NCBI GenBank assembly: GCA_964543385.1
Contig: CAZIYE010000001.1
Location: forward strand, 420,001-452,000
Reading direction: 5' to 3'
DNA length: 32,000 nucleotides
Origin: an uncultured Candidatus Saccharibacteria bacterium
GTDB taxonomy: Bacteria > Patescibacteriota > UBA1384 > XYA2-FULL-43-10 > 1-14-0-10-43-13
The notes below the pieces were generated by a model. That model was not told the DNA's origin, made no database searches, and saw only the letters and a list, made by a program, of their open reading frames with translations. The stretch's first letter is position 1. Every line of letters starts with the position of its first letter. A program made the position numbers and the translations under genes. Of this stretch, positions 596 to 31,393 are shown piece after piece.

Positions 596-1756
596 TCATC
601 TCCCACTTCCTTTGTTCAGCTCCACCAGCGGTCCGATGACCACCTTCTGGAGCATGATCCTACGATTCTCGGGGTTCCGCAGCCTCCAGCTGTCTCCTCC
701 CAGGAATCGGCGCTGCTCAGCAGCAGACAGCCCCTTCCAGCGTGGATCCTTCGCCTGAGCGGCGATCTCAGCATCGCTGTTTGGGACGCCGCACTCGAGT
801 AGCACCTTGTTCTCGATCGTGTTATAACCACCGAGAACATCGAAGGTCTTTGCTAAAGTGCAGTTGACTGGCTTGCCGAACCGTTTCCGGCCATAGCCCT
901 GATCAAGCAGAACATTCTCGATCAGTCCGGCCAGTTGTCCAGTGTTACCTCGTCGGTGACACTCACGCAGCCCTGACCAACCATTGCTACCCAACGAGTC
1001 CACATGGAGCTCGACGAATGCACTAGTGGTACAGTTCTGGTGATCAGACTGGGCTTGGGCAGCAGCTTTCGCTCGGTCGACTGTGTCAGAGGAGTTCTGC
1101 ATGGGGTTTCCCCCATATAAGACAGCCTCTTTTGGCAACGGCAGAGGATCTTTTGGCCCAGTCACCTGGTCCATTGATTCAGCCTCGGCCGCATATACCA
1201 CAGTCGCACCGAGAGCTTCAGCCATCAGGCCAAGCTCACGCGCCATCCGATAGGTATAGGCGGCTTCCCAGTAGGCTTCTCCGTCGAATACCCAAGAGCA
1301 TCCGACGTCGAGACCATAACTGGTTACAGCATCACGGCCACCATGACCGGGGCTAACGACCAGCAACTGACCCAATAGGGCGTTCTGGCCATATTGCGCT
1401 ACGATTGCCCTACGCTCTGCTTCGGAGAAGCTGAGTTTGGGGCCTCGGGGCAGAAGTTTGCCAAGGCCTTGCGGCTCCTGGGGCTCCTGCACAGTCGTGC
1501 CGGGCTTTACAGCCGGCTTGTGCTGGTTCCACGGGTGCCACAAGAGCACGCCGAGAACCAACAACAGGAAAAGACTTGCCATGATAACGCCGAAGCGGTT
1601 CTTAGCATAGTTTTCTGCATAGGAACTACCGAACCCTGCAAAGAACGCAATGACTGCCGCCATCAGGGCTTCGAGGACCATCCACAGGCCCTGCAAAAAT
1701 GCGAGGGCTTTGGGGTGGCGGCGCCCGAAGGTCGCCCAACGCTGTTGAATCCGCAT
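596..1756 (-). CDS. Membrane-anchored N-acetylmuramoyl-L-alanine amidase (Amidase_3-like); GC-rich
   Basis: The ORF-track protein shows 'VVSPGHGGRDAV', 'GEAYWEAAYTYRMARELGLMAEALGATVVYA' and 'FVELHVDS'. These match the GHGG / E / H zinc-ligand pattern of Amidase_3. Two N-terminal hydrophobic helices are present. I moved the start to the ATG at 1756 (MRIQQRW...) because AAGGAG lies 7 nt upstream, whereas the track start at 1783 is a GTG. A spot GC count on 601-660 gives 57%. Confidence 0.6.
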   Translation of the reverse strand: MRIQQRWATFGRRHPKALAFLQGLWMVLEALMAAVIAFFAGFGSSYAENYAKNRFGVIMASLFLLLVLGVLLWHPWNQHKPAVKPGTTVQEPQEPQGLGKLLPRGPKLSFSEAERRAIVAQYGQNALLGQLLVVSPGHGGRDAVTSYGLDVGCSWVFDGEAYWEAAYTYRMARELGLMAEALGATVVYAAEAESMDQVTGPKDPLPLPKEAVLYGGNPMQNSSDTVDRAKAAAQAQSDHQNCTTSAFVELHVDSLGSNGWSGLRECHRRGNTGQLAGLIENVLLDQGYGRKRFGKPVNCTLAKTFDVLGGYNTIENKVLLECGVPNSDAEIAAQAKDPRWKGLSAAEQRRFLGGDSWRLRNPENRRIMLQKVVIGPLVELNKGSGR

Positions 1757-1849
1757 GATTTTTCTCCTTTTCAGAGCTGCCACGTGCGGTTGGACAGCTC
1801 AAGTGTTCTTCTCGCCGGATGTGTAGAATTTCCAGCGTAGACTAGGTAT

Positions 1850-1878
1850 ATTATAGCATTTTTATATATAAAAGTCAA
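1850..1878 (-). promoter_or_regulatory. Sigma70-like promoter for the amidase gene
   Basis: The minus strand reads TTGACT (1878-1873), a 17-nt spacer, then TATAAT (1855-1850). It sits in an AT-rich spacer between the two GC-rich CDSs. Confidence 0.55.
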
Positions 1879-1888
1879 TGGTAAAACA

Positions 1889-1917
1889 TTGACAAATAGC
1901 TAATATAGTGATAAAGT
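1889..1917 (+). promoter_or_regulatory. Sigma70-like promoter for the 1971-3035 gene, back-to-back with the amidase promoter
   Basis: TTGACA (1889-1894), a 17-nt spacer, then TAAAGT (1912-1917). The SD AAGGAGGG ends 5 nt before the ATG at 1971. Confidence 0.45.
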
Positions 1918-1970
1918 AGCGAGTCGATCAATCCTGATCCGACAACTCTGACACACAGAAGGAGGGCAAC

Positions 1971-3035
1971 ATGCCCCGAAACTCTCGCAGAACACGTCGT
2001 CGTCGTTTACTCATCGCCAATTTGGTGATGTTGGGCCTGATTGTCCTTGCTTTTACTGCCATACTCATTTGGCGGCATTGCAATGACAAAAAGGTTACGA
2101 CCCCGACACCTAAACCCCCCAAGACCGCCGAGGTTTTCCTTTGGATCTGGCAGATAGAGGAAGCCAAGGAAGTCTGCGGTGGAAGTCTGCAAGGGATTGT
2201 AGACAAATGTAAGGAGAATGGAATCTCCGGCCTGATCGTTTGTTCCAATCGCGGAGGCGAATGGTTCAACGATCGAGATGAGTTCGGCAAACTCCGCGAA
2301 ATTGCGGACGAAAATGAGCTCATTTTCATGGGTTATGGACGTTTCCTCGCCAAAGATCCCCCGGCAGAGATGCTGAGAACGATCGAGGCGATCCAGGACG
2401 GAGCCGATGGTTTCATCTTCGACATGGAAGCCGAATATGAAACCCCTGAGGGAGCCGAAAAAGCAAGTGCCGTCGTCGCAAACGTCAAGCGTTGGTGTGA
2501 AACCAACGCGCCTGACGTAGTCGATATGCTCGGCTACAGCTCCTTCGGTCTGCCAAGCAGGCACCCCAACTTCCCAACAGAAGAATTGGATGAGCTCTGC
2601 GGTTTCTCCGCACCCCAGTGGTACACCACCAGCTGGGCAAAGACTCAGGGCTGGTCCCTCAAAGAGAGCCAAGAGAAAATCCGCAAAGAGTTCTCTGAGC
2701 CAGGAAATGCATACGCGCCTGTCCTCCAGGCCTATGGCAAAAATAGTGGCTACGAGTACGTCACCCCCGACGAACTCAAAGCCATGCTCAAATTCTCCGG
2801 TGAGATGGAGTTCACAACCTTCGTCTCAATCTTCCGCCTGGAGCTCATGGATGACGAGCACTGGCAGACGATTAGGGAGTACACTGGCGCGAATAAACGC
2901 CAGAACAAAGCACGAGACCGGCTGGATAGCCGGTCTCGTTTCTATTATGTATCAATTTTGTCATTGCGTCTGTCGCGGTTGTCATTCCAGCTTGTAAGCT
3001 TGAGAGCTGGAATCCAGGAGTTTGTTTACTTATAA
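1971..3035 (+). CDS. Membrane-anchored protein with a putative glycoside-hydrolase-like TIM-barrel domain (GH25 / Rv2525c-like); GC-rich; 3' end uncertain
   Basis: The N-terminus is Arg-rich and followed by one TM helix (RRRRLLIANLVMLGLIVLAFTAILIW). The body has alternating beta/alpha-like segments and an acidic 'GADGFIFDMEAEYE' motif reminiscent of the GH25-type D..E catalytic strand. Family assignment is by eye only. The last ~45 codons run through two perfect hairpins. Confidence 0.35.
   Translation: MPRNSRRTRRRRLLIANLVMLGLIVLAFTAILIWRHCNDKKVTTPTPKPPKTAEVFLWIWQIEEAKEVCGGSLQGIVDKCKENGISGLIVCSNRGGEWFNDRDEFGKLREIADENELIFMGYGRFLAKDPPAEMLRTIEAIQDGADGFIFDMEAEYETPEGAEKASAVVANVKRWCETNAPDVVDMLGYSSFGLPSRHPNFPTEELDELCGFSAPQWYTTSWAKTQGWSLKESQEKIRKEFSEPGNAYAPVLQAYGKNSGYEYVTPDELKAMLKFSGEMEFTTFVSIFRLELMDDEHWQTIREYTGANKRQNKARDRLDSRSRFYYVSILSLRLSRLSFQLVSLRAGIQEFVYL
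2913..2946 (+). terminator. Canonical intrinsic terminator lying inside the annotated 3' end of the 1971-3035 ORF
   Basis: cgagaccggc (2913-2922), loop tggata, gccggtctcg (2929-2938), then tttctatta. The stem is a perfect 10 bp and GC-rich. Confidence 0.6.
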
Positions 3036-6907: not shown

Positions 6908-9900
6908 CTACCAAGACCAAGAGAATATAGTTATACTCCAACTCGTACCTAATCGTAGATTACCCTTTTGCGTATTAAAATAATCCGTTACCACACCAGT
7001 CAGAATATTGTCCCTGAAAAAACCCCAGACACCGTCAAGAATTGGCGAAAGAATATGATTGAGAAAATACTGGGTTCGATCACCTTTGCCCATCACCATA
7101 ATATTCCAGAAATCATTAATAGTACTAATTTGGTTTTTGACCCAAGCCATTGCATCATCTCCAACAGCGTTAACAAAGGCACCGAAACTAACAATTAGCT
7201 TAAAATTAACTTTAATCTCTTTATCACTAGTCAAATTTCTACATATCATTTTACCTTCTTTTGTCGATTTTATATCTGTCGTTGGCCGCCCGCTGTCATC
7301 AAAATAACGTGGGGCTTCACAATCTGGCGCTGCCATGCTTTGAATTAGGAAGTTTCTGGATGCTTTTGCCACTATTTCCTTATTACTACCATAATCTAGC
7401 GTTACTACCCCGTTAGGATCAGTCGTTCCAAAAGGATTTCTCTTCGCAAGAGCTAATTGATTATTCTTATAGGTTTCGAGTCTGTCCGGTATAAAAGTTA
7501 CCATTAGATTATTATAAAAATTATCGAGAGAACCAATCGCAGCCGCCGTATCAATCTGAGCTGACGACAAAGTCAAACCGCGCGAGACAAGAGTCTGATT
7601 AAATTTTGGTATTATATCAAAATTAAATAACGAAGTAAGTTTATCTGTAATACTTGTGACTTTCCTCACAGTGCATTGAGGTGATCTTGGATTCTCTTGG
7701 CAAGCAATATTTACACACTGAGCCACCCCAACCTTGTCACCCAAAACTGCCTTATTTATAATATCCGTATTTGAACATGGAGAAATACCAATAATTTGTC
7801 TGCTGACCAGCCCCCCTCTTCTGTCATTAATCGTAACTTCACGACTACCATTAGGCAAAACAGTCACAGTTGTGGTAGTACCATCTGAATTTGCGATAAT
7901 TCTCATAGCTCCTGGTCGGTCCGGTACTGTATTGCCAAATAACCCAGCGCCAAGTCTTGTTAGGATGCTAGTCGCATTGCTCTCGAGTTCAGTAATCCCT
8001 TCAATTGTTTGCCTACCAAGCTTATAGGCGTTAGTAAGATTGACCTGGTCACGCCATAGCGACTTCACGTCGTTGATTTTAGAATCAACCCAGCCAAGAA
8101 CACCCCCTCGTGTTTTTGCTTTGATTTGCTCAATTTGCGAAGCAGTATCGGCATCCGTAATTACAGAATTAAGATCTTTCTGTACATTTAACCTGATTTG
8201 TTTGGGTCTGAAAGTCGCAGTAACTGTTTTATCAGAAGTGACGTTACTAACAGTACATTGATAACCATCTGTCGATATATCCGTGCAACCGTTCCAAACA
8301 ACTATGGAATTGTTTTCTGGCATAGTTGAAATGATTGCAGAATCGCCGTAATTCACCACCTGAGTCAGCGGATTTACGCCATTTATAGAACCCAGATCAG
8401 TTCTTGAGACAGGATCATTCACTGAGCTCACAATCACCGTGAAGATCCTTTTGCGGACTTTGACTACGACATCATGATTTGCATCGATATTTGTAATACT
8501 GCAGGTTGATGCAGTAGGAGTGGTCGGCATACAGCCGGTCCAGCTAACGATTTCACTACCTGCATCGATCAGTATCACCATAAAATTGACGTTACCGCCA
8601 GGGGCGATTTGCTGATTGGACGGGTTGATAGAAGCGCGGGCATTTGAAGCAGGATCGATCATACCAGTGACTGTGTGCATCGTTGCAAAGGCAGCGTCAA
8701 TTGTATGATCAGCAATAATAGATGTGAAAGCATAAGAGCCGGAACTGACAGCGGCATTATTAGTAGCACCGTCGATGCGAACATCCCTGATATTATATCC
8801 GAGAGCAGCAGTTACCAAATAAGATTGAGAATCACCATAATTTACCGTCTTTACACCAGCGGGTGTGATCAAGCCGTTTACTCCTGCTGTTGATTTGATA
8901 GTAAAAGTCTTGAGTTTAAAGGTGGCGATGACTGTCCTATTGGAGATGATATTGTCAAGTTTACAAAGGTCAGACTCAATACTATCGCAACCGGACCAAT
9001 CAGTATTGGGATTAAATTCAACGGATGAAATAGCCGCAGTAGCTTTTATTAGTAAAATATCACCCATATTAACTACTGTGTAGGGAATTGTTTTGTCAAA
9101 AGTTCCGTCACCATTGCCTGCCTTATTGATACTAATAGTATATGTGTTAATAGCAAAACTAACATAAATACTATGATCGCCCGATATATTAGAGAATGTA
9201 TAACTTGAAACTAAATCCACGGGATTTGCATCAACAACTAATGTTTCTATATGATAATTAACTGCCGGAGTGAAGGTATAAGTTTTAGATTGTCCGTAGC
9301 TCACATAAGTTATGCCTGGTGATGAAATCGCCCCGTTAGAACCGAGAACTGCATTAATCGAATATGTCCTAATAATAAAAGTAACTGCAATTGTGTGATT
9401 AGAATCAACATTGTCAAACCAGTAGGAGCTATCAGCAACAGCCGTAGGGTTGTTCACTCCGTCAACCAACACCTGATATATAAGATAACCATTATTAGGG
9501 GTAAATGTGTATAATTTAGAATAATCATATCCTACCATCGTAACACCTGGAGTCAAAATTGAACCGTTTTGACCTGCTGTAGCTGTAATAGCATAAGTAT
9601 CGCGAGTATAGACTACCGAGACCGTGTGATTAGCGGAAATATCAGAGAAAGTATAAAAGCCTGCAGCTATCGCTCCGCTATTTGATACTCCGTCCACTAA
9701 GACTTCACCTATATGATAGTGATTCTCCGACGTGAAAGTATAAGTCTTAGAGGAATCCCAATTTACAACAGTAGCTCCTGGTGAAGTGATTGAGCCGTTC
9801 GAACCTGTTGTGGCAGTAATGGTGTAGGTATTAATGTCAAAAGTAGCCGAGATAGTGTGATTAGCAGTTACATTGGTAAAGTTATATGAACTTACAGCAC

Positions 9901-11551
9901 CGACAGATGAACCGTTTACTCGAACATCAGAGATATGATAGCCGTCATTCGATGTGACGGTGTAAGATTGAGAACCATTTGTAGCTACACTGGTCGTTCC
10001 AGGAGGCGAGATTGTACCATTAGCGCCAGAAGAAGCTGTGATAGAATAATCACCCGCAGTAGTTACCACAAAGGGATAATTTGTCGTGCCTCCATTTGTA
10101 GTTATAATACAGGATCCAGCACCTATTGCTGCGCCAACTGGCACAGTAAGTATAATAGACGTATTTGTCCATGTAGTAGGAGAACCTGCTACGGCTCCTA
10201 TGGATATGGTTGAATTTCCTTGATTCAAGCCAAAATCAGTACCAGTAATCACGACAATGTCACCAACATCTCCATTCGACGGATCTATTGATGTAATCGC
10301 GGGGACATTAGGCGTATTATAATGAACCGTCATAGCATCAAATATGGGAGTGACTGTGGTATCTTCTGTAATAAGAATTATCTTTATCTGAGCATAACGT
10401 CCAGTTGGGACAATATGGTTTATGCCAATTACAAAAGTACTGGCTTGGTGGTTGGCATCTTCGCTCCACTCAGCAGCAGATAAACCGGCTTCAGTATCAG
10501 CTGCCCTTAGCCGGACTTCGAAATCAGTATTGGTGGGGACTGTCACAGTCCAGTCAGCATAATTCCAGTATGTACCGCTAAGACCTGAATCATAAGTAGT
10601 AATGGCAGTACCTACAGAAGAGAAAGCCGGGAAGGTGCCAGCTGTATTAACCCCACTTAAGATATCATTATAAAGAGCAGAATTACCCGATACATCACTT
10701 GGATAGAAGCCCATGCCCCCCTGCATTACAGCAGCATTGATGGTGTGGTCAGATATAGAAGAAGCTGCTAATTGCAAAACAGCCGAAGTAATTGGCCCCG
10801 AAAGAATAGATGGATCTATAATGATAAAAGCTCTCTCGCCTTTTCCACCATAGTTTCCAATGTATCCAACCGTAGTCATCCCTCCTCGTGTCCCATCAGA
10901 GTAAACGTTGAATAAGTCAGACGTCACGCTTGGCAATGTAATTGTACCATTATCAGTAATAATCCTAATCGAACTATCGCGAGCCCCGTCAGTGCCAATC
11001 CAACTCTCCTCATCAGCATTTTCAGCCGAATCTTTAAAACCAATAATGACCAACTCTTCATTTTCTTTAGCATAATTCATCCGCTGAATAAAGGCACAAC
11101 TTAGAGTAATATCTTTAGAACCACCATCAGCGGTGAAATCAGCTGCTGCTAGTGAAGGCTCAGTAATATTTCCTACAGCGGTTGGACAACCACCATCAAG
11201 CTGAAAAAATCCCTGGGTTAATGGAGTGCCATTATCGACACCGCTTAGATCAAAATTCGATAAATCAATAGTATCGTCCCAAGTTTTAGTCAGGGAGGCA
11301 GCCTTTAAATGCTGTTGCGGATTTGATATCAAGACAGCGGTAAATAATGAAAAAACGACTAAACTGAAAAATAAAAACACCCAATGACTAGTCCTAGCAA
11401 TTGGATTGATATGCCATCTATAATACCAGCGGAAATGCATCCTCAAAAAATTATGCAGCTTTGATGCCCAAGGCATCAAAGCTTTAGTACTTCGCTGAAT
11501 ACGAATTAACTTTTTATCTAACTCTTGGATATTAATTTGAGATGATGTCAT
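6908..11551 (-). CDS. Giant (1547 aa) membrane-anchored surface protein with an IPT/TIG-like domain and tandem InlB-B-repeat-like domains
   Basis: The N-terminal 55 aa are basic and followed by one TM helix (HWVFLFFSLVVFSLFTAVLIS). Residues ~414-497, 'ITSIDPSNGDVGDIVVITGTDFG...TISIGA', are IPT/TIG-like. Residues ~501-1116 form at least 8 tandem repeats of ~75-80 aa. The C-terminal ~430 aa are unrecognised and contain Cys. Confidence 0.85.
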   Translation of the reverse strand: MTSSQINIQELDKKLIRIQRSTKALMPWASKLHNFLRMHFRWYYRWHINPIARTSHWVFLFFSLVVFSLFTAVLISNPQQHLKAASLTKTWDDTIDLSNFDLSGVDNGTPLTQGFFQLDGGCPTAVGNITEPSLAAADFTADGGSKDITLSCAFIQRMNYAKENEELVIIGFKDSAENADEESWIGTDGARDSSIRIITDNGTITLPSVTSDLFNVYSDGTRGGMTTVGYIGNYGGKGERAFIIIDPSILSGPITSAVLQLAASSISDHTINAAVMQGGMGFYPSDVSGNSALYNDILSGVNTAGTFPAFSSVGTAITTYDSGLSGTYWNYADWTVTVPTNTDFEVRLRAADTEAGLSAAEWSEDANHQASTFVIGINHIVPTGRYAQIKIILITEDTTVTPIFDAMTVHYNTPNVPAITSIDPSNGDVGDIVVITGTDFGLNQGNSTISIGAVAGSPTTWTNTSIILTVPVGAAIGAGSCIITTNGGTTNYPFVVTTAGDYSITASSGANGTISPPGTTSVATNGSQSYTVTSNDGYHISDVRVNGSSVGAVSSYNFTNVTANHTISATFDINTYTITATTGSNGSITSPGATVVNWDSSKTYTFTSENHYHIGEVLVDGVSNSGAIAAGFYTFSDISANHTVSVVYTRDTYAITATAGQNGSILTPGVTMVGYDYSKLYTFTPNNGYLIYQVLVDGVNNPTAVADSSYWFDNVDSNHTIAVTFIIRTYSINAVLGSNGAISSPGITYVSYGQSKTYTFTPAVNYHIETLVVDANPVDLVSSYTFSNISGDHSIYVSFAINTYTISINKAGNGDGTFDKTIPYTVVNMGDILLIKATAAISSVEFNPNTDWSGCDSIESDLCKLDNIISNRTVIATFKLKTFTIKSTAGVNGLITPAGVKTVNYGDSQSYLVTAALGYNIRDVRIDGATNNAAVSSGSYAFTSIIADHTIDAAFATMHTVTGMIDPASNARASINPSNQQIAPGGNVNFMVILIDAGSEIVSWTGCMPTTPTASTCSITNIDANHDVVVKVRKRIFTVIVSSVNDPVSRTDLGSINGVNPLTQVVNYGDSAIISTMPENNSIVVWNGCTDISTDGYQCTVSNVTSDKTVTATFRPKQIRLNVQKDLNSVITDADTASQIEQIKAKTRGGVLGWVDSKINDVKSLWRDQVNLTNAYKLGRQTIEGITELESNATSILTRLGAGLFGNTVPDRPGAMRIIANSDGTTTTVTVLPNGSREVTINDRRGGLVSRQIIGISPCSNTDIINKAVLGDKVGVAQCVNIACQENPRSPQCTVRKVTSITDKLTSLFNFDIIPKFNQTLVSRGLTLSSAQIDTAAAIGSLDNFYNNLMVTFIPDRLETYKNNQLALAKRNPFGTTDPNGVVTLDYGSNKEIVAKASRNFLIQSMAAPDCEAPRYFDDSGRPTTDIKSTKEGKMICRNLTSDKEIKVNFKLIVSFGAFVNAVGDDAMAWVKNQISTINDFWNIMVMGKGDRTQYFLNHILSPILDGVWGFFRDNILTGVVTDYFNTQKGNLRLGTSWSITIFSWSW
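8204..10051 (-). repeat. Protein-level tandem domain array (at least 8 units of ~75-80 aa) inside the giant gene
   Basis: Repeat starts are YSITASSGANG, YTITATTGSNG, YAITATAGQNG, YSINAVLGSNG, YTISINKAGNG and FTIKSTAGVNG, plus two degenerate units. Units end in '..NHTIsatF'. The last units show the 'W.GC....C.v.n......V.ATF' signature of the divergent InlB B-repeat family. Confidence 0.7.
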
Positions 11552-21560: not shown

Positions 21561-22817
21561 CTATTTTGTCATTGGCTGCTGCATAATGCTGGCATAGGGC
21601 AGGAAATCACCAACCCACCGCTCAATCGGTGTCGCGTCGAAGATGGTCCTCCCGAGAAGGGCGTTGCCAACGCTGGCAATCGCTTCCTCCATCATCCGAA
21701 TGGAATGAACAGCGGCTTCGCCGATCTGTTTTTTGGTGCGGTAATGCGGAACGAGGTGTGCCTGCCAGGCATCATCATGATCGGCTTTTGCCTGCTCGAT
21801 TGCATCGTAGATACCATAAACACGGAAGATCGCACGTTGGATCTCCTTGTTTGCCGGAATCATGTATACACGCCCATCGGGAGCTGTGTAGGCGAGCATG
21901 ATCCTATTCTCATCGGGATTACAGGCGAAGTCGGTGAAGATCGGGAAACCGTTAACGACCATACCCTCAGTTTTCCCGTCGATGCTCATGAGGCCCAGCG
22001 CCTTGCAGTAATCGCGCTGGTGACGAGCATTCTCTGCCACCGTTTTCCGCCAAGCCATAAAAGCCAGCGGATCAAGGTGCATCATCAGCCGCGCCTCATC
22101 TTCTGTCATAGTAGCATCACCTGCCGGCCGAAACTTCGTGTCGAAATTGATAGCCGGTTCGGCAATCATGTGGCCCGGATTGGGGATACAATCAAGACCG
22201 GCCGCCGCGAGTACCCGCACCATCGCCGGATCTTGCATGATCCCGGGGATAGCCCGAATCTCATCAAGCCCGACAATCGTATCGGCATAAGTAGCGATCT
22301 TCTCATACCGTTCTACCATGTTGGCCGCGCCAAAGATCTTCTTGAAGGTTGAGCTCCCGAGCGGGAACCCCCAACGATGAATACATTCTGCGTCAGCGAC
22401 GAACACGTTGATATCGCCCGAGTTGATCAGTCGGTGATAAATCGCTCGCGTTTCGTCCGTTATCTTATCGCCGAAGACATGGGGGGTTACCCCCAGCTTC
22501 ATAACAATGATATCGGAGAGTTCTCCGCGGTCCATCAACGTCTCCACATCCGTGATCTTACCATCCTTGTCGAGCATACCGGCATAGGTATGTTGGAAAC
22601 CGGCTGCAGAGGCCTGCTCCCAATACCGTGCCGACGTCATCGCCAAAATATAGTTCTTGTCACGGATCTCGATTGGGGGTATTAGCTCCTTGAGATCGCC
22701 GACCGAAAAGCGGCCGGATACCTGCCAGGCGCCAAGCCCCAACGAATTGAACCCCGGCTTTCGAAATAACCGGCCTCCAGGGCTGTCACCCTGAATTTGA
22801 TCTTTCACTGAACCCAT
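21561..22817 (-). CDS. Hypothetical 418-aa protein with a possible SAICAR-synthase-like nucleotide-binding core; GC-rich
   Basis: The ATG at 22817 (MGSVKDQ...) has GAGAGGAAG upstream. 'SIDGKTEGMVVNGFPIFTDFACNPDENRIM' resembles the PurC 'vDfKlEfG....g.vvL.DE..sPD.sR.W' motif (D.K.E.G ... D ... PD..R). The rest was not recognised. A spot GC count on 21601-21660 gives 58%. Confidence 0.3.
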   Translation of the reverse strand: MGSVKDQIQGDSPGGRLFRKPGFNSLGLGAWQVSGRFSVGDLKELIPPIEIRDKNYILAMTSARYWEQASAAGFQHTYAGMLDKDGKITDVETLMDRGELSDIIVMKLGVTPHVFGDKITDETRAIYHRLINSGDINVFVADAECIHRWGFPLGSSTFKKIFGAANMVERYEKIATYADTIVGLDEIRAIPGIMQDPAMVRVLAAAGLDCIPNPGHMIAEPAINFDTKFRPAGDATMTEDEARLMMHLDPLAFMAWRKTVAENARHQRDYCKALGLMSIDGKTEGMVVNGFPIFTDFACNPDENRIMLAYTAPDGRVYMIPANKEIQRAIFRVYGIYDAIEQAKADHDDAWQAHLVPHYRTKKQIGEAAVHSIRMMEEAIASVGNALLGRTIFDATPIERWVGDFLPYASIMQQPMTK

Positions 22818-22972
22818 AATCACTTCCTCTCTCTTTTTCAAGAGATAGTCCATGCATCCATGCAAAAATATCTGACAGAGATCCTACTCGGCCACCAGTT
22901 GGAAAAGTACCTCCTCTAGATTGTATTAGATAACCAAACAAGGCACACACTATGTGCCCTGTTTCCAACTAA

Positions 22973-25689: not shown

Positions 25690-27102
25690 CTACTCCTGAG
25701 ATCCACCTGGTGCCTCGCGCCTCTTCTCTATATCCCCGAATCTCATTTGAGCCGGATTGAAGAACAATTCGAGATTACCGATTGGACCATTTCTATGTTT
25801 TCTTATTAAAACTTCTGTTATCCCTTTTCTTTCTGATTCAGGGTGATAATATTCGTCGCGATATAGAAACATTACGATATCAGCATCCTGTTCTATGGAG
25901 CCAGACTCACGCAGATCGGACAATTGTGGACGCTTGTCGTCACGATGTTCAACAGCACGAGAGAGCTGTGACAATGCGATAATTGGCACATTCAATTCTC
26001 TTGCGAGACCCTTTAGGCCTCTTGAGATTTCTGAAATTTCTTGAACCCTATTGCCTTCCGAGCTCCGACTATGACCAGACATAAGCTGCAAATAGTCAAT
26101 AATGATAAGGCCAAGTCCATGTTCCATTTGCAACCTTCTTGCCTTTGCCCTTATCTCCATAATATTGCCGCCGGCTGAATCATCAATAAACAATGGTGCC
26201 TCAGAAAGAACACCCATGGCATAGCCAATTTTTGGGAAGTCGTCATCAGAAAGATTACCCGTTCTCAATTTCCACGAGTCAACACCGGCCTGCGAAGATA
26301 ATAGACGATCTACGAGCTGATCTTTACTCATTTCTAATGAAAATATAGCAACAGGCAATTTCTCATCTATAGCAGCGTTTTCAGCCAAGTTTAGAGCGAA
26401 AGAAGTTTTACCCATCGATGGCCTAGCAGCCAGAATAATCAAATCCGACTGTTGAAAACCAGCAGTTACATTATCTAGTGCTTTAAAACCACTGGGAACG
26501 CCTCTAATCGCGCCCTTATCTTTGTCCTTGTGGATTTTATCTATTCTATCAAAGGCATCTGTGAGAACATCCTTGATGGCAATAAATTTATTCTTCATCG
26601 ACTTTTGTGAAATGGAGAAAAGTGATTGTTCTGCCGAATCTAAAACCTCGGAAATTTCGCCGTCTTCTTCATAACCAAGCTCCGTAATATTTGCTCCAGC
26701 ACTAATCAGACGCCGCAAAATAGCCTTGTCGCGGACAATCTGAGCATAATAAGCAATGTTTGCAGCAGAAGGAGTGTTATTAACAATTTCCGCCAAATAA
26801 CTAGATCCGCCAACTTGTTTTATTTTACCTGCGTTCTCCAGTATTTCGGAGAGCGTAACGATATCTATCGGCATTCTTTTTTCAAACAAATTTGCCATTG
26901 CCTCATAGACAATACCATGACGACTATCATAAAAATCCTCGTGGGTGATGACGTCTGCTACCTTGATAATTGCATCTTTATCTAACAAAATGGCGCCGAG
27001 AATACTTCTCTCCGCTTCTACGTTTTGAGGAGGCATACGCAAACCAGATGGCTTGTTGGCTGGCTCCTGATTACGACTAGATTTTTGCTCTTTTACAGGC
27101 AT
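25690..27102 (-). CDS. dnaB: Replicative DNA helicase DnaB
   Basis: 'PPQNVEAERSILGAILLD', Walker A 'ARPSMGKTSFALN', 'FSLEMS', 'IIDYLQLM' and 'LSQLSRAVE.R.DKRP.LSDLRESGSIEQDAD'. Confidence 0.95.
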   Translation of the reverse strand: MPVKEQKSSRNQEPANKPSGLRMPPQNVEAERSILGAILLDKDAIIKVADVITHEDFYDSRHGIVYEAMANLFEKRMPIDIVTLSEILENAGKIKQVGGSSYLAEIVNNTPSAANIAYYAQIVRDKAILRRLISAGANITELGYEEDGEISEVLDSAEQSLFSISQKSMKNKFIAIKDVLTDAFDRIDKIHKDKDKGAIRGVPSGFKALDNVTAGFQQSDLIILAARPSMGKTSFALNLAENAAIDEKLPVAIFSLEMSKDQLVDRLLSSQAGVDSWKLRTGNLSDDDFPKIGYAMGVLSEAPLFIDDSAGGNIMEIRAKARRLQMEHGLGLIIIDYLQLMSGHSRSSEGNRVQEISEISRGLKGLARELNVPIIALSQLSRAVEHRDDKRPQLSDLRESGSIEQDADIVMFLYRDEYYHPESERKGITEVLIRKHRNGPIGNLELFFNPAQMRFGDIEKRREAPGGSQE

Positions 27103-27116
27103 TTGTTTATCCCTTA

Positions 27117-28694
27117 CTACGTTTCAAAGATTTCAGTAACAGCCTTTTCCTGATCAATATTTTCTTCTTTATTTATGGATTTTGAACTACTATCAGCTAT
27201 TTTGCAACATACTTTGTATTTAGATCCTGTAACTTGAGAGATAATACTTTCCAATACATCACGATTCTTCTTCTCAGAAATTCTGTCTTTGTGAAACTTA
27301 AATTTTACTCCGAGGGTAAGAGTATCGTTTGTCATTTGCTCTGGCTTTGCATCTCGCAGCAACGCAGCAAGAGTTGAATTCTCCTTTTTAGTTGACTCGA
27401 TAACTTGGCACCAAATATCCTGCGTCATTTCCAGAACTGGTACAGGTACAGTTGCTGATGTGCACTGGCTATCTTTTTCGACAGAATTAGGCCGTGGCTC
27501 AAAAACAGCTTTTTCTTCAATTGGTGGAGTTTTAACCACCTTTTTGTCCTGCGACACAATAGCTTGAGATTTTGTCGCTGGTATATCAATAATTTTAAAT
27601 TCACTGTTTACGGATTTAACTACTGCTATTTCCAAGGGCAGCATCGGATACTGTACATCCTTCAGCAAAGAGCTAGCTTCTATAAAAGAATCAATTACTT
27701 TCATTATTTTAACAAGATCAGTTTTTGAGGATAGTTCCCTGATTTTTGCAATGTTTTCCAATGTATCTTCGAAAACAGTCTCTGCATTAATGCTACAGAG
27801 CATGACCCTTCTTAAGGTTTCTATAACCTTGCGATTAAATTCCAAAAGGTCATGCCCCGAATCAAAAAGTCTCCTGGCGATTTTTAATCCCTCCTCCGGG
27901 TTTTTATTAAAAATTGCACCAACAAAGAGTAAAACTTCGTTATCCTCTGCAACACCAAGAATTTTTCTAGTTATCTCTATGTTAATTTTACTATTTGCAG
28001 ATGAAACTTGTTCAAGCAGGCCCAATGCATCCCTGTGGCCACCAGCAGCAACTACAGCAATCAAATCTAGTGAGGCATCATCAATAGTTATATCCTCTGC
28101 TTTGCAAACATTTTTCAAGTTTGTGATGATCTCTTCTTTTGCTGCTCTTTTGAAATCAAACCTTTGGGTTCTAGAAATAATAGTCGCCGGTATCTTATGA
28201 GTCTCAGTTGTGGCTAAAATAAAAACAGCATGGCTTGGCGGCTCCTCAAGGGTCTTTAAAAGCGCATTGAAGGCGCTTTTAGACAACATATGAACCTCAT
28301 CTATGATATAAACCTTTTTGGGAGATTTAGTTGGTGACAAACGAGCTTTCTCGATCAAATCGCGAACATCATCTACTCCTGTATGCGAAGCGGCATCTAT
28401 TTCAATAACATCAAGAGATTTGCCAGCAGCTATTTCTAAGCATGAATTACACTCGTTGCATGGCTCTCCAGAAAATTCCTCTTTTTTGTTTTTCGAATCA
28501 TTTATCTTTTGACAATTAATTGCTTTAGCAAGTAATCTAGCAGTCGAAGTTTTGCCAATACCTCTTGGACCAGTCAAAAGATAGGTATGGACAAGTTTGT
28601 CACTCCTGATACTCTCGAGTAATGTTTTTGCCACATGCTCTTGACCAACAAGTTCGCCAAATGTTTTCGAACGATATTTCTGATAAAAAGCCAT
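27117..28694 (-). CDS. dnaX: DNA polymerase III subunit gamma/tau
   Basis: 'YRSKTFGELVGQEHV', 'YLLTGPRGIGKTSTARLLAKAINC', the zinc module 'CNECNSC', 'IIDEVHMLS' and 'NALLKTLEEPP'. Confidence 0.92.
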   Translation of the reverse strand: MAFYQKYRSKTFGELVGQEHVAKTLLESIRSDKLVHTYLLTGPRGIGKTSTARLLAKAINCQKINDSKNKKEEFSGEPCNECNSCLEIAAGKSLDVIEIDAASHTGVDDVRDLIEKARLSPTKSPKKVYIIDEVHMLSKSAFNALLKTLEEPPSHAVFILATTETHKIPATIISRTQRFDFKRAAKEEIITNLKNVCKAEDITIDDASLDLIAVVAAGGHRDALGLLEQVSSANSKINIEITRKILGVAEDNEVLLFVGAIFNKNPEEGLKIARRLFDSGHDLLEFNRKVIETLRRVMLCSINAETVFEDTLENIAKIRELSSKTDLVKIMKVIDSFIEASSLLKDVQYPMLPLEIAVVKSVNSEFKIIDIPATKSQAIVSQDKKVVKTPPIEEKAVFEPRPNSVEKDSQCTSATVPVPVLEMTQDIWCQVIESTKKENSTLAALLRDAKPEQMTNDTLTLGVKFKFHKDRISEKKNRDVLESIISQVTGSKYKVCCKIADSSSKSINKEENIDQEKAVTEIFET

Positions 28695-28703
28695 AAAAGT
28701 CAG

Positions 28704-28731
28704 AATTAAGAATTAAGAATTAAGAATTAAG
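28704..28731. repeat. Tandem heptad repeat gaattaa x4
   Basis: Read directly from the sequence. It lies 10-37 nt upstream of the dnaX start codon. Confidence 0.95.
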
Positions 28732-28853
28732 CTAGTTTATGCTTACTTCCTACTTCTTATTGCTTACCGCTGACTACTTTCTCATTATAGAGTTAAGTTG
28801 TGTGTTTAAAAAATACTGCTTGCCTCACCTCAAAAATACTAAGTCCTGCCAAA

Positions 28854-28881
28854 GGAAAATGGAAAATGGAAAATGGAAAAT
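28854..28881. repeat. Tandem heptad repeat ggaaaat x4
   Basis: Read directly from the sequence: 28854-28860, 28861-28867, 28868-28874 and 28875-28881. Confidence 0.95.
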
Positions 28882-29071
28882 ATATATTTGTCCCCAGATA
28901 ATCCACAGACATATACACAAATAGCTTATTTGAAGTCTTGTTTTTTAGTCTCCAACTTTATAAACCTTTGTTTAGCGAACTTGTAATGGTTATATTTCCG
29001 CTTTTTTCGCAGTTAATTACTTGTTTTTAATATAATAAAAAAGTAAAATGTACTAAAGGAGCGGAAACAAA

Positions 29072-31393
29072 ATGAACAAGACAGAACTAGCTAAAATTTT
29101 AGCTAGCAAAATCAAAAAAGACCCGAAAGTTGCCGAAAAAATGATCAATTCTTTTGGCGATACTGTTACTGAAGTATTATCAAAAGGCGGCAAAATCGTC
29201 TATTCTAACTTCGGTACTTTTTATACTGTTCATTATCCATCTAAGGTTATTTACCATCCAACGCTTGGCACTAAGAAAAAAATGATCATGTTACCTACAA
29301 ATGCAGTCAAATGGATGCCATCAGGTAATATTAAAGATATGGTAAATTCCGGCAAAGAAATCGAGGGAGCGACAACTTTTGGCGCCAGCAAAAAAATTAA
29401 GGATCTGCATCTCAACCCCGCAGTAGAAGAAACTATAATTGATAATACAAAAGATATGGATAAAAGCCAGGAAATTGGTGGTTCATTGACATATTCTAGC
29501 TCAGAGCATGAAGATCAAGAGGAAGTTGAAATCCCTATCCGTAATATTTCAAAGAATAAAATCGAGGATAATACGACTATTGATGATAAGAAAGCTACTC
29601 CGGCAGTAGAAGACAAAGATGGTTTCTGGGATCAACTATTTAAAAAAGCAAACGACGATTCCAAAAATATCGACCAAAGCAAAAAAATAGAGACAGATAG
29701 TATAGATAGCAAAAATGATAAATCACCCTCAGTCGGATTGGGCTTGTTTGGTGCCAATACGTCGTCGAAACAAGAAATCAAAGCCCCTACTCCTAATGTC
29801 ATAGATGGTCAAAATATCGAGCCAGAAGAAGAAAGCCTATCTCCTTACATAAACAGAAAAACTTCCATCTCATATATCGACTTATCCAAGACGACAGTAC
29901 CCAAAGAAATCTTACAAATGATTTCAGAAAAAATTGCCAGAGAATATAAAATTGTTCCAGTCGAAGATAGTAATGATGGACTAGTGGTTGGCATGGTCGA
30001 CCCAGAAGATATTGAAGCAATAGAGATTGTGAAAAAGATTATCGGCAAAAAGGTTTTGCCAAAGCTGACAACTGAAACTGACCTAAACCACGTTTTGGAC
30101 CAATACCAAGGTTTCGAAAGTGAGGTGAAGGAAGCGATTGAAGATGTTGAAGATAAAGATCATAAAAAAGAAGAAGATCAAAAATCTGCGTCGATAATAT
30201 CAAGCTCCGCGCCAGCATCTAGGATTGTTAGTTCGCTATTAAAACGAGCCATTAGAGATAAGGCATCAGACATACATATAGAACCATATGAGGATGAAGT
30301 GACTGTACGTTTTCGTATTGATGGCGTCCTACATAAGAAAGTATCTCTGCCAAAAGATATTCAGCAAGCAGTAGTTTCACGCATCAAAATTTTATCAAAC
30401 CTAAAAATAGACGAGCAACGTCTACCACAAGATGGACGCTTTAGTATTATGGCAGACAACCGTAAAGTTGATTTTCGTGTCTCAACCATGCCAATTGCAA
30501 ATGGCGAAAAAGTAGTTATGAGAATCTTGGATAAGCTCTCAGGGATAATTTCAATTGATGACCTAGGCTTTCGAGAAAGAGATTTTTCTCTTATCAATAA
30601 TAGCTGCCAAAAATCTCATGGAATGATCTTAGTAACTGGCCCTACTGGATCGGGCAAGACAACAACTCTTTACGCCCTGATACAGAAAATATACAGCGAA
30701 GGTATTAATATCATTACTTTAGAGGACCCTATCGAATACCAAATCCCCGGCATTAATCAGAGCCAGGTGAATGCGGAAATAGATTACACTTTTGCCTCCG
30801 GCCTGCGCTCCATTTTACGTCAAGACCCGGATGTCGTTATGATTGGAGAGATAAGAGATAGAGAAACAGCTGAGATGGCCGTACACGCAGCCTTGACTGG
30901 TCATGTTGTTCTTTCCACACTTCATACCAATGATTCTGCAGGCGCAATTCCTAGATTAGTAGATATGAATATAGAACCATTTCTATTAAATTCATCTCTA
31001 AATCTGATTCTAGCCCAAAGATTAGCGAGAAGAATTTGTGATTCCTGCAAAGAAGAAATAAATCCATCCCAAGACCAATTAAAACTAATTAAGAATGAAT
31101 TAGACAAAATGCCCCGTGAAGAAAAGGCAAAAATCGGTAATAAAATTAAATTTTACAAGGGCAAGGGCTGTAAAGATTGTTCCAATACTGGATATAAAGG
31201 CAGAATAGGAATTTATGAAGTGCTTGAAGTTGATAAGAAGATAAAAGATTTAGTCGCCAATAAAGCGTCGTCGAATGGGATTGAGGAGAGTGCTATTCAA
31301 AATGGCATGACGACAATGATACAAGATGGAATTTTAAAAGCAATCAGCGGTCTTACTACAATTGAAGAAGTATGGAGGGTCACCAAGGAATAA
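29072..31393 (+). CDS. pilB: Type IV pilus assembly ATPase PilB (GspE family) with an N-terminal HU/IHF-fold domain and a long acidic/Lys-rich linker
   Basis: Residues 1-93, 'MNKTELAKILASK...NFGTFYTVHYPSKVIYHPTLGTKKKMIMLPTNAVKWMPSGNIKDMV', align with the HU pattern 'MNKtEL...GFGtF.vr.r..R.grNP.TGe.i.ip...v.kFk.Gk.lkd.v'. Residues ~265-345 form the T2SSE_N domain. The ATPase core carries the Walker A 'GPTGSGKTTT', 'RQDPDVVMIGEIRD', 'GHVVLSTLHTND' and the tetra-Cys 'CDSC...CKDC'. The reading frame is a single uninterrupted 773 codons, with AAGGAG upstream. Confidence 0.85.
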   Translation: MNKTELAKILASKIKKDPKVAEKMINSFGDTVTEVLSKGGKIVYSNFGTFYTVHYPSKVIYHPTLGTKKKMIMLPTNAVKWMPSGNIKDMVNSGKEIEGATTFGASKKIKDLHLNPAVEETIIDNTKDMDKSQEIGGSLTYSSSEHEDQEEVEIPIRNISKNKIEDNTTIDDKKATPAVEDKDGFWDQLFKKANDDSKNIDQSKKIETDSIDSKNDKSPSVGLGLFGANTSSKQEIKAPTPNVIDGQNIEPEEESLSPYINRKTSISYIDLSKTTVPKEILQMISEKIAREYKIVPVEDSNDGLVVGMVDPEDIEAIEIVKKIIGKKVLPKLTTETDLNHVLDQYQGFESEVKEAIEDVEDKDHKKEEDQKSASIISSSAPASRIVSSLLKRAIRDKASDIHIEPYEDEVTVRFRIDGVLHKKVSLPKDIQQAVVSRIKILSNLKIDEQRLPQDGRFSIMADNRKVDFRVSTMPIANGEKVVMRILDKLSGIISIDDLGFRERDFSLINNSCQKSHGMILVTGPTGSGKTTTLYALIQKIYSEGINIITLEDPIEYQIPGINQSQVNAEIDYTFASGLRSILRQDPDVVMIGEIRDRETAEMAVHAALTGHVVLSTLHTNDSAGAIPRLVDMNIEPFLLNSSLNLILAQRLARRICDSCKEEINPSQDQLKLIKNELDKMPREEKAKIGNKIKFYKGKGCKDCSNTGYKGRIGIYEVLEVDKKIKDLVANKASSNGIEESAIQNGMTTMIQDGILKAISGLTTIEEVWRVTKE

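Follow-up and report, generated by a model that had tools for sequence, protein, structure and literature searches.

An HU-type fold fused to a type IV pilus assembly ATPase across one class of ultra-small Patescibacteria

The region analyzed here (the window) is a stretch of 32,000 nucleotides (positions 420,001 to 452,000 of contig CAZIYE010000001.1, assembly GCA_964543385.1) from an uncultured member of the Patescibacteria. It carries a gene, HU-pilB, in which an HU/IHF-type fold is joined through an acidic linker to a complete PilB-type ATPase, and this fusion is confirmed as real and conserved across one class of ultra-small Patescibacteria (Berkelbacteria in public records). The best explanation currently available, held at roughly even odds (a probability of about 0.5), is that the product would serve as extension ATPase in a second type IV pilus platform that lacks PilT (pilB-pilC-pilM-pilN-pilO), with its N-terminus extended by a diverged HU fold on an acidic tether, and that this N-domain may serve as a dimerizing, non-canonical nucleic-acid-binding tether on the pilus motor. 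Patescibacteria represent a large, almost uncultured share of bacterial diversity, and their type IV pili are essential for host attachment and belong to the few machines kept in their reduced genomes. A pilus motor carrying a nucleoid-protein fold suggests either a physical link between an envelope machine and DNA, of which we know no description for any PilB, or a new form of PilB regulation.

Conservation of the HU-pilB fusion

Using a word-indexed search, 96 other protein clusters (90% identity) were found, all but one of which matched both PF00216 and PF00437 and nearly all of which also matched PF05157. An exhaustive HMMER search of 1.84 billion representatives retrieved 23 proteins at E <= 1e-10, nearly all of them long, with a clear score gap separating the long fused proteins from ordinary HUs of about 90 amino acids. 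A survey of PilB orthologs, which had been proposed in a first-pass annotation made from the sequence alone, revealed the same fusion in 32 of the 44 species genomes of the window's order (families f1, f3 and f146), generally as open frames of 650-940 amino acids, a few of them being shorter (contig end or truncation). The fused form is also present in at least 15 more genomes belonging to eight other families of the class, where the arms are closer to that of ordinary HU (e.g., SYPSR...NPR in locus L017). In a sample of 400 genomes from the phylum, no long fused frame was detected outside the class among the matches listed, besides which there were 176 weaker matches.

At approximately 37% GC, random stop codons would make up about 6.7% of codons by our own arithmetic, so the chance of a 773-codon frame remaining open is approximately 5e-24; the previous statement that such a frame would hardly stay open by chance is thus borne out by both the open reading frame (ORF) list and this estimate. 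A Shine-Dalgarno sequence, AAAGGAG, is located at 29055-29061, 10 nt 5' of the HU-pilB ATG. Across the family, the linker between the two modules varies from 56 to 285 amino acids, yet the frame is open in every case.

Domain architecture

The annotated combination of an HU fold, a linker and a complete PilB within one frame agrees with both the Pfam domains and the catalytic motifs. In the suggested profile searches, the N-terminus (aa 1-92) matched Bac_DNA_binding (PF00216) over the entire model (positions 1-90 of 90) with 53.7 bits against a cut-off of 22.4 (E 2.5e-14), and the MshEN and T2SSE domains were recovered from the same protein. On the NCBIfam equivalogs for HU-alpha, HU-beta and IHF-alpha/beta, the N-terminus scored 16-30 bits, below all cut-offs (111-162). 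When a profile of the HU-like domain was compared with PDB, 34 HU/IHF/TF1 sequences and no other family were matched, the best being 5lvt (HU; E 3.6e-11). An AlphaFold2 model of aa 1-110, built from an alignment of 24 sequences from related loci, has a mean predicted local distance difference test (pLDDT) score of 84.7 and HU topology (helices 3-14 and 18-37, strands 42-83, helix 85-93), and the best 50 Foldseek matches in PDB are all members of the HU/IHF family (HU, IHF, Hbb, TF1 and a viral HU-like protein), each with a probability of 1.00. Conservation of the core and dimer-interface residues (L6, A21, F28, L36, F47 and F50) would be compatible with dimer formation. The module is part of a 773-aa protein, unlike the free-standing dimeric HU of about 90-100 residues. 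It is followed by a conserved motif, E-x-A-T-x-F/H-G-A-x-K-K, in which T101 is kept in at least 90% of sequences, and by a short predicted helix (aa 105-114, pLDDT 62-73 in the full-length model).

The ATPase part matches T2SSE (PF00437) with 450.3 bits against a cut-off of 24.9, and it is preceded by an MshEN/GSPII domain (PF05157, 57.8 bits). Residues 252-772 align end to end with solved PilB and PilF structures (E 1e-120 to 1e-129), the nearest being PilB 3jc8, 5zfr and 5tsg and PilF 6f8l. All elements of a complete PilB listed in the first-pass annotation were recovered: Walker A (GPTGSGKT, aa 523-530), the Asp box (LEDPIE), Walker B (DPDVVMIGEIRD, aa 585-596) and the His box (GHVVLSTLH), whose columns are invariant among 67 aligned intact family members, as well as the zinc-site cysteines C656, C659, C700 and C703, which are all present and invariant. 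Such a tetra-cysteine zinc site is a mark of assembly ATPases rather than retraction ATPases. Judged by its motifs, the window copy is an intact, operon-embedded form with complete catalytic motifs. With respect to NCBIfam equivalogs, the C-terminal 520 residues scored 575.8 on PilB (TIGR02538, cut-off 675.65) and 587.5 on GspE (TIGR02533, cut-off 630.25); since both scores lie under their cut-offs, the protein can be assigned to neither equivalog and is best regarded as a family member at the Pfam level. A c-di-GMP-binding N1 domain was considered and rejected, because a regular-expression search for the cyclic di-GMP (c-di-GMP) MshEN motif (tandem 24-residue RLGxx(L/V/I)(L/V/I)xxG...) gave no match in the 773 residues with strict, relaxed or core patterns.

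Between these modules lies a segment whose central 148 residues (aa 115-262) have a pLDDT below 50 in the full-length model and are therefore predicted to be disordered. Column conservation in aa 93-262 is 26%, the net charge is -14 in the window copy (family mean -8.5), and the segment includes the short semi-conserved motifs EIPI at about aa 152-155 and G-x-F at aa 224-226. In comparison with a same-genus ortholog, the linker has fewer nonsynonymous than synonymous differences per site (pN 0.34, pS 0.66). The description of an acidic linker rich in Lys and Ser stands, with Asn as a further frequent residue, while the length of about 170 residues given previously is corrected to about 150-170.

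A remodeled arm under strong constraint

Within the whole HU-PilB protein, conservation is highest in the second half of the HU-like domain. This half contains the invariant arm motif YSNFGTFYTVHYPSKxIxHPxxG...KKMxMLPT..VKWMPS, and 21 columns are invariant within the 110-aa N-domain. Among 92 family sequences, the invariant or near-invariant residues comprise Y44, S45, N46, F47, G48, F50, Y55, P56, S57, I60, H62, P63, M73, T76, K80 and W81. Measured against the same-genus ortholog, the HU-like domain has a pN of 0.073 and the ATPase core one of 0.058, with synonymous sites near saturation (pS 0.66-0.81); purifying selection on the HU-like domain is as strong as on the ATPase core.

For comparison of the arm (aa 51-77), the 92 family members were aligned with 79 ordinary HUs. 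In Bacillus HU numbering, the arm changes are R53 to V, R55 to Y, R58 to K, R61 to Y or a variable residue, and N62 to H. Position 55 is thus Tyr in the family and Arg in 52% of ordinary HUs; Lys at position 58 corresponds to Arg in 71%, the variable position 61 to Arg in 34%, and His at position 62 to Asn in 72%. Beyond the arm, Met occupies position 82 (Lys/Arg in HU) and Gly position 85 (Lys in HU). P63, a Pro in family members and ordinary HUs alike, is conserved in 100% of the family and G66 in 99%, and G66 is followed by a 2-residue insertion. The earlier remark that the arm keeps the Pro and Gly and has lost most of its arginines is therefore confirmed by alignment to both Bacillus HU and the 92 members. 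Retained residues include K/R3, K58, P63, G66, K69, K80 and K88, and from the canonical DNA-contact set of arm arginines and body lysines only K58, K80, K88 and K/R3 are left.

Despite these substitutions, the net charge of the arm is unchanged (+3.8 vs +4.0 in ordinary HUs), because acidic residues (0.4 vs 2.1) have been shed along with basic ones (4.2 vs 6.1). The aromatic plus His count has risen to 4.9 vs 1.6 in ordinary HUs. The HU-like domain as a whole is Lys-rich, with a net charge of +9 in the window copy and a mean of +7.8 in the family. Given the net positive charge of the arm and the invariant tip Pro, nucleic-acid binding stays plausible.

Pseudo-ATPase descendants and short forms

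Walker B and the His box, and frequently the P-loop lysine too, are absent from 21 of the 92 full-length family members. The identity of these 21 to the window protein falls to 39% in the ATPase region, compared with 71% in intact members, while identity in the HU beta-arm is 82% in pseudo-ATPases and intact members alike. Six pseudo-ATPase loci among 24 (L019, L020, L021, L027, L029 and L036) lack pilC, and five of them also lack pilMNO; in two pseudo-ATPase genomes (100% and 95% complete), one PilC only and no PilM above threshold were found genome-wide. In the family tree, all 21 pseudo-ATPases fall into one clade with a support of 99. Several independent inactivations of the ATPase were therefore rejected, although long-branch attraction could contribute to this grouping.

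In family f2, a protein of about 255 amino acids with a related HU-like domain adjoins dnaX at the place where other families have HU-pilB. This short form matches the fused-type HU-like domain with an hhalign probability of 99.2 and is present in 11-12 of the 12 f2 genomes. One example of this type, L013:1498-2262 (genome G080), combines the signature SNFGTF...MPPT..KW.PS with an uncharacterized C-terminal half. Derivation of the C-terminal half of these forms from the PilB N2 domain is not demonstrable (BLAST E 1.3; hhalign matched the HU domain alone).

The arm has thus been kept where the ATPase decayed and the pilus genes were lost, which shows that the HU-like domain has a role independent of ATP hydrolysis and of neighboring pilus genes and argues for one independent of pilus extension.

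Relationship to known systems

Several known systems can be compared with HU-PilB. It shares the GSPII/N1 domain, N2, the C-terminal domain, the catalytic motifs and the tetra-Cys site with PilB/PilF of Myxococcus (3JC8), Geobacter (5TSG/5TSH, 5ZFR) and Thermus (6F8L, 5OIU), and it likewise adjoins pilC and pilMNO. It differs from these ATPases in having an extra N-terminal HU fold and a disordered acidic linker of about 150 residues and in lacking the c-di-GMP motif. The N-terminus of Thermus PilF is also extended, but by extra GSPII domains and not by a DNA-binding fold.

With HU and IHF (Bacillus HU 1HUU, Anabaena HU-DNA 1P71, E. coli IHF 1IHF), the N-domain shares the fold, length, hydrophobic core and dimer interface, and net positive charge, as well as the FG-F turn, tip Pro63, Gly66, K/R3, K58, K80 and K88. 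In contrast to these free dimers of about 90 residues, it is fused to a 680-aa ATPase, has lost R53, R55, R61, K82 and K85, carries His in place of N62 within a Tyr/His-rich arm, and has two extra residues inserted where the arm strand descends.

Multidomain HU clades such as HU-CCDC81 and HU-HIG, surveyed by Burroughs et al. in 2017 (PMC5499826), also combine an N-terminal HU domain with a disordered segment, and the class-level relative L017 scores 32.6 bits on the HU-HIG model. In that survey, HU domains of bacterial members linked by a disordered segment to envelope-anchoring parts were proposed to act as nucleoid-envelope tethers, and HU-CCDC81 was argued to have left DNA binding, with the positive charge of the arm lost and acidic density constant (PMC5499826). 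HU-PilB differs from these clades in that its partner is a secretion-type hexameric ATPase rather than transmembrane (TM)/SPOR/LysM, immunoglobulin (Ig) or winged helix-turn-helix modules, and it retains the arm charge that HU-CCDC81 has lost. The survey of multidomain HU proteins makes no mention of PilB, pilus or ATPase fusions (PMC5499826), and the HU-PilB fusion is an architecture absent from this published account of the HU superfamily.

On the pilus side, the closest parallel in layout is provided by TM7x, a Saccharibacterium and the only experimentally studied organism of the Patescibacteria, whose second type IV pilus system (T4P-2; pilC2-pilB2-pilM2-pilN2-pilO2) forms a PilT-less thin pilus used for host binding and not for competence or motility (PMC12206443). 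Like the HU-pilB locus, T4P-2 is a second platform without a retraction ATPase, a likeness of layout that does not imply orthology, and both TM7x and the genome studied here also have a pilB-pilT-pilC-pilin-pilD locus. T4P-2 adjoins recA/recX, whereas HU-pilB adjoins dnaX/dnaB, and no HU domain on PilB2 is mentioned in the TM7x paper (PMC12206443). No description of an HU domain on PilB was found in the multidomain-HU survey, a 2024 review of PilB control (PMC11656802) or the Patescibacteria pilus papers, and public records name HU-PilB proteins only as 'ATPase, T2SS/T4P/T4SS family' or 'PilB'.

Proposed function and alternatives

If HU-PilB does act as a nucleic-acid-binding tether, its N-domains would dimerize as HU does, with three dimers on each PilB hexamer or with dimers that bridge hexamers, and the remodeled arms rich in Tyr, His and Lys would clamp nucleic acid in a non-canonical manner, with distorted DNA, single-stranded DNA or DNA held at lower affinity as candidate ligands. 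A Patescibacteria cell measures no more than a few hundred nanometres across, and within it the pilus machine might in this way be fastened at its cytoplasmic base to the nucleoid or to DNA passing through, as a tether or for hand-off. Before engagement, the basic HU-like domain may be shielded by the acidic linker, in the manner of the acidic tails of other DNA-bending proteins. Tethering without a need for ATP hydrolysis would also explain why the HU-like domain is kept in the pseudo-ATPase descendants. Active motors, pseudo-ATPases and truncated forms with the same invariant arm constitute built-in controls within the family, and the question can therefore be addressed on a recombinant domain of 110 residues, with no need for a culture of the organism.

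Nucleic-acid binding is ranked first mainly because the charge of the arm has been kept, unlike that of HU-CCDC81. Several observations weigh against it. Four canonical DNA-contact positions are gone (R55 to Y, R61 to variable, K82 to M and K85 to G), and the extreme invariance of a hydrophobic and aromatic arm is equally expected of a specific protein-protein interface. A canonical HU that is very basic (net +15) is already available in the cell. The pseudo-ATPases form a single clade and thus record one event rather than several, albeit an old one followed by long retention. Furthermore, natural competence of TM7x is independent of the analogous T4P-2 system (PMC12206443). A specific link of HU-PilB to DNA uptake has no support, considering that the locus is without a retraction ATPase and pilins and that T4P-2 of TM7x is dispensable for competence.

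The main competing explanation, less likely than the first but serious, is that the HU fold now serves for protein binding or regulation and has lost nucleic-acid binding. Its arm would then grip a specific partner, such as PilM, PilC, another pilus or cell-envelope protein or its own acidic linker, or the N-termini would dimerize to control hexamer assembly or localization, perhaps standing in for the missing c-di-GMP-sensing part. The replacement of most arm arginines by invariant Tyr, Pro, Ser, Ile and His and the MshEN domain devoid of the c-di-GMP motif would both fit such a role, as would the shift toward protein-protein interaction thought to have occurred in HU-CCDC81 and Ig-fused HU clades (PMC5499826) and the fact that N-terminal domains of PilB are known docking sites for regulators (PMC11656802). 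However, where HU-CCDC81 lost its positive charge, the HU-PilB arm preserves its own by shedding acidic residues, and the tip Pro is invariant. In addition, the HU-like domain persists in loci without pilC, pilM, pilN or pilO, so the products of these genes cannot be its sole partners.

It is also conceivable, if rather doubtful, that HU-PilB serves as a new type of chromosome-to-envelope or DNA-handling tether on a secretion-ATPase hexamer, in which HU-like dimers would hold the nucleoid or incoming DNA at the pilus base; this role would have been kept in lineages with a pseudo-ATPase or the form of about 255 amino acids that dropped pilC/pilMNO.

An interfacial membrane anchor, in which arms rich in Lys, Tyr, Trp and His would bind anionic lipids and hold the ATPase at the cytoplasmic membrane, is improbable. 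The invariant arm and the following strand (HYPSK, HP, KKK, KWMPS) may resemble interfacial membrane-binding loops, but there is no amphipathic helix or known lipid-binding motif, and preservation of the HU fold together with its tip Pro points toward a ligand of the groove type. Lipid binding by HU arms has, to our knowledge, no precedent. Finally, an artefactual fusion of hup and pilB through an assembly or sequencing error, or translation only past the linker, is close to refuted: the genome is probably metagenome-assembled, but dozens of genomes that were assembled independently have this frame without interruption and with very different linkers, a strong Shine-Dalgarno sequence precedes the first ATG, no Met occurs at aa 130-282 and M283 lies inside the MshEN domain, and the linker itself has pN below pS.

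Locus organization and genomic context

The features of the locus are listed in Table 1. HU-pilB is transcribed divergently from dnaX-dnaB. The start of pilC overlaps its end by 32 nt, and pilM, pilN and pilO come next, just beyond the window, so that pilC, pilM, pilN and pilO are all placed directly 3' of HU-pilB. The Pfam scores of the last three are 100.6 bits (PilM_2), 28.5 bits (PilN) and 20.8 bits (PilO, just below its cut-off). The gene order dnaB-dnaX / HU-pilB-pilC-pilM-pilN-pilO / response regulator and 414-aa protein recurs in 24 related loci; dnaX lies upstream in all 21 of these 24 that reach upstream of HU-pilB, and also in L013 and L017. The HU-pilB locus itself contains no retraction ATPase and no pilins, and no structured RNA (Rfam) or tRNA overlaps the HU-pilB region or occurs elsewhere in the window.

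Table 1. Coordinates of HU-pilB, its domains and its neighbors (window positions)
Feature	Position	Strand	Basis or remark
HU-pilB, whole gene	29072..31393	+	773 codons + stop; ATG start; ORF list and Pfam
HU/IHF-fold domain, aa 1-93	29072..29350	+	Pfam PF00216, PDB profile match, AlphaFold2, invariant columns
Conserved post-HU motif and short predicted helix, aa ~99-114	29366..29413	+	Family conservation, full-length model
Predicted disordered acidic Ser/Asn/Lys-rich linker, aa 115-262	29414..29857	+	pLDDT < 50
GSPII/MshEN (N1) domain, aa 266-350	29867..30121	+	Pfam PF05157
T2SSE ATPase (N2 + C-terminal domain), aa 378-769	30203..31378	+	Pfam PF00437
Walker A	30638-30661	+	Motif position
Walker B	30824-30859	+	Motif position
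Tetra-Cys zinc site	31037-31180	+	Motif position
pilC, platform protein, 411 aa	31362..32000	+	Pfam T2SSF, 187.5 bits; runs past window end
dnaX (DNA polymerase III tau/gamma)	27117..28694	-	Divergent neighbor; ORF list
dnaB	25690-27102		With dnaX, conserved left flank of HU-pilB
AT-rich intergenic region dnaX/HU-pilB	28695..29071	.	Holds Shine-Dalgarno sequence and two heptad arrays

A conserved protein of about 350-414 amino acids was observed just right of the window (C1:455377-456621) and at L013:2284-3303. It has an N-terminal TM segment, no Pfam match, an AESG(I/L)EEG motif recalling PilX-type minor pilins and a C-terminal ISANIDRQSGT motif, and it adjoins HU-pilB even where pilCMNO are gone, usually together with a single-domain response regulator.

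The dnaX/HU-pilB intergenic region contains two perfect heptad arrays, (agaatta)x4 near 28702 and (ggaaaat)x4 near 28854. Their interpretation as conserved binding sites was rejected, as none occurs in the equivalent regions of 21 relatives, and promoter-like matches in the gap are no commoner than in shuffles. A replication origin at this position was likewise rejected: the minimum of the cumulative GC skew lies at about 486-520 kb of the 671-kb contig and not at 449 kb, adjoining dnaA/dnaN/recF (485992 onwards). The switch in GC skew at dnaX/HU-pilB is a local change of gene orientation.

The genome comprises 902,808 bp in 4 contigs and is 98.7% complete. The recommended check for a separate hup gene identified a canonical HU at C2:23189-23470 (93 aa, 103.6 bits, net charge +15) with the arm RRERAGVNPRTGKPI. 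Three PilB-like ATPases and one PilT are encoded: an 838-aa PilB grouped with PilT, PilC, pilins and PilD at 188-200 kb, an orphan PilB of 548 aa at 482 kb, and HU-PilB. The 838-aa paralogue (C1:196667-199183, minus strand) has an N-terminal extension of about 400 residues in which a single MshEN domain was recognized. ComEC (Competence) gave one match genome-wide, by six-frame search at C4:28659-29462 (minus strand). The matched frame is interrupted by a TGA and a TAG, which could mean either a broken gene or a match that extends over two frames.

Two other parts of the window stand out. Positions 596-3035 and 21561-22865 form islands of 51-54% GC in a genome of 38% GC. Pfam recognizes nothing in the long ORFs of these islands (395, 354 and 434 aa), and no Rfam or tRNA match accounts for their composition. 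On the minus strand, positions 6908-11551 contain a 1547-aa ORF with one IPT/TIG domain as its sole Pfam match, the product of which is probably a large surface protein.

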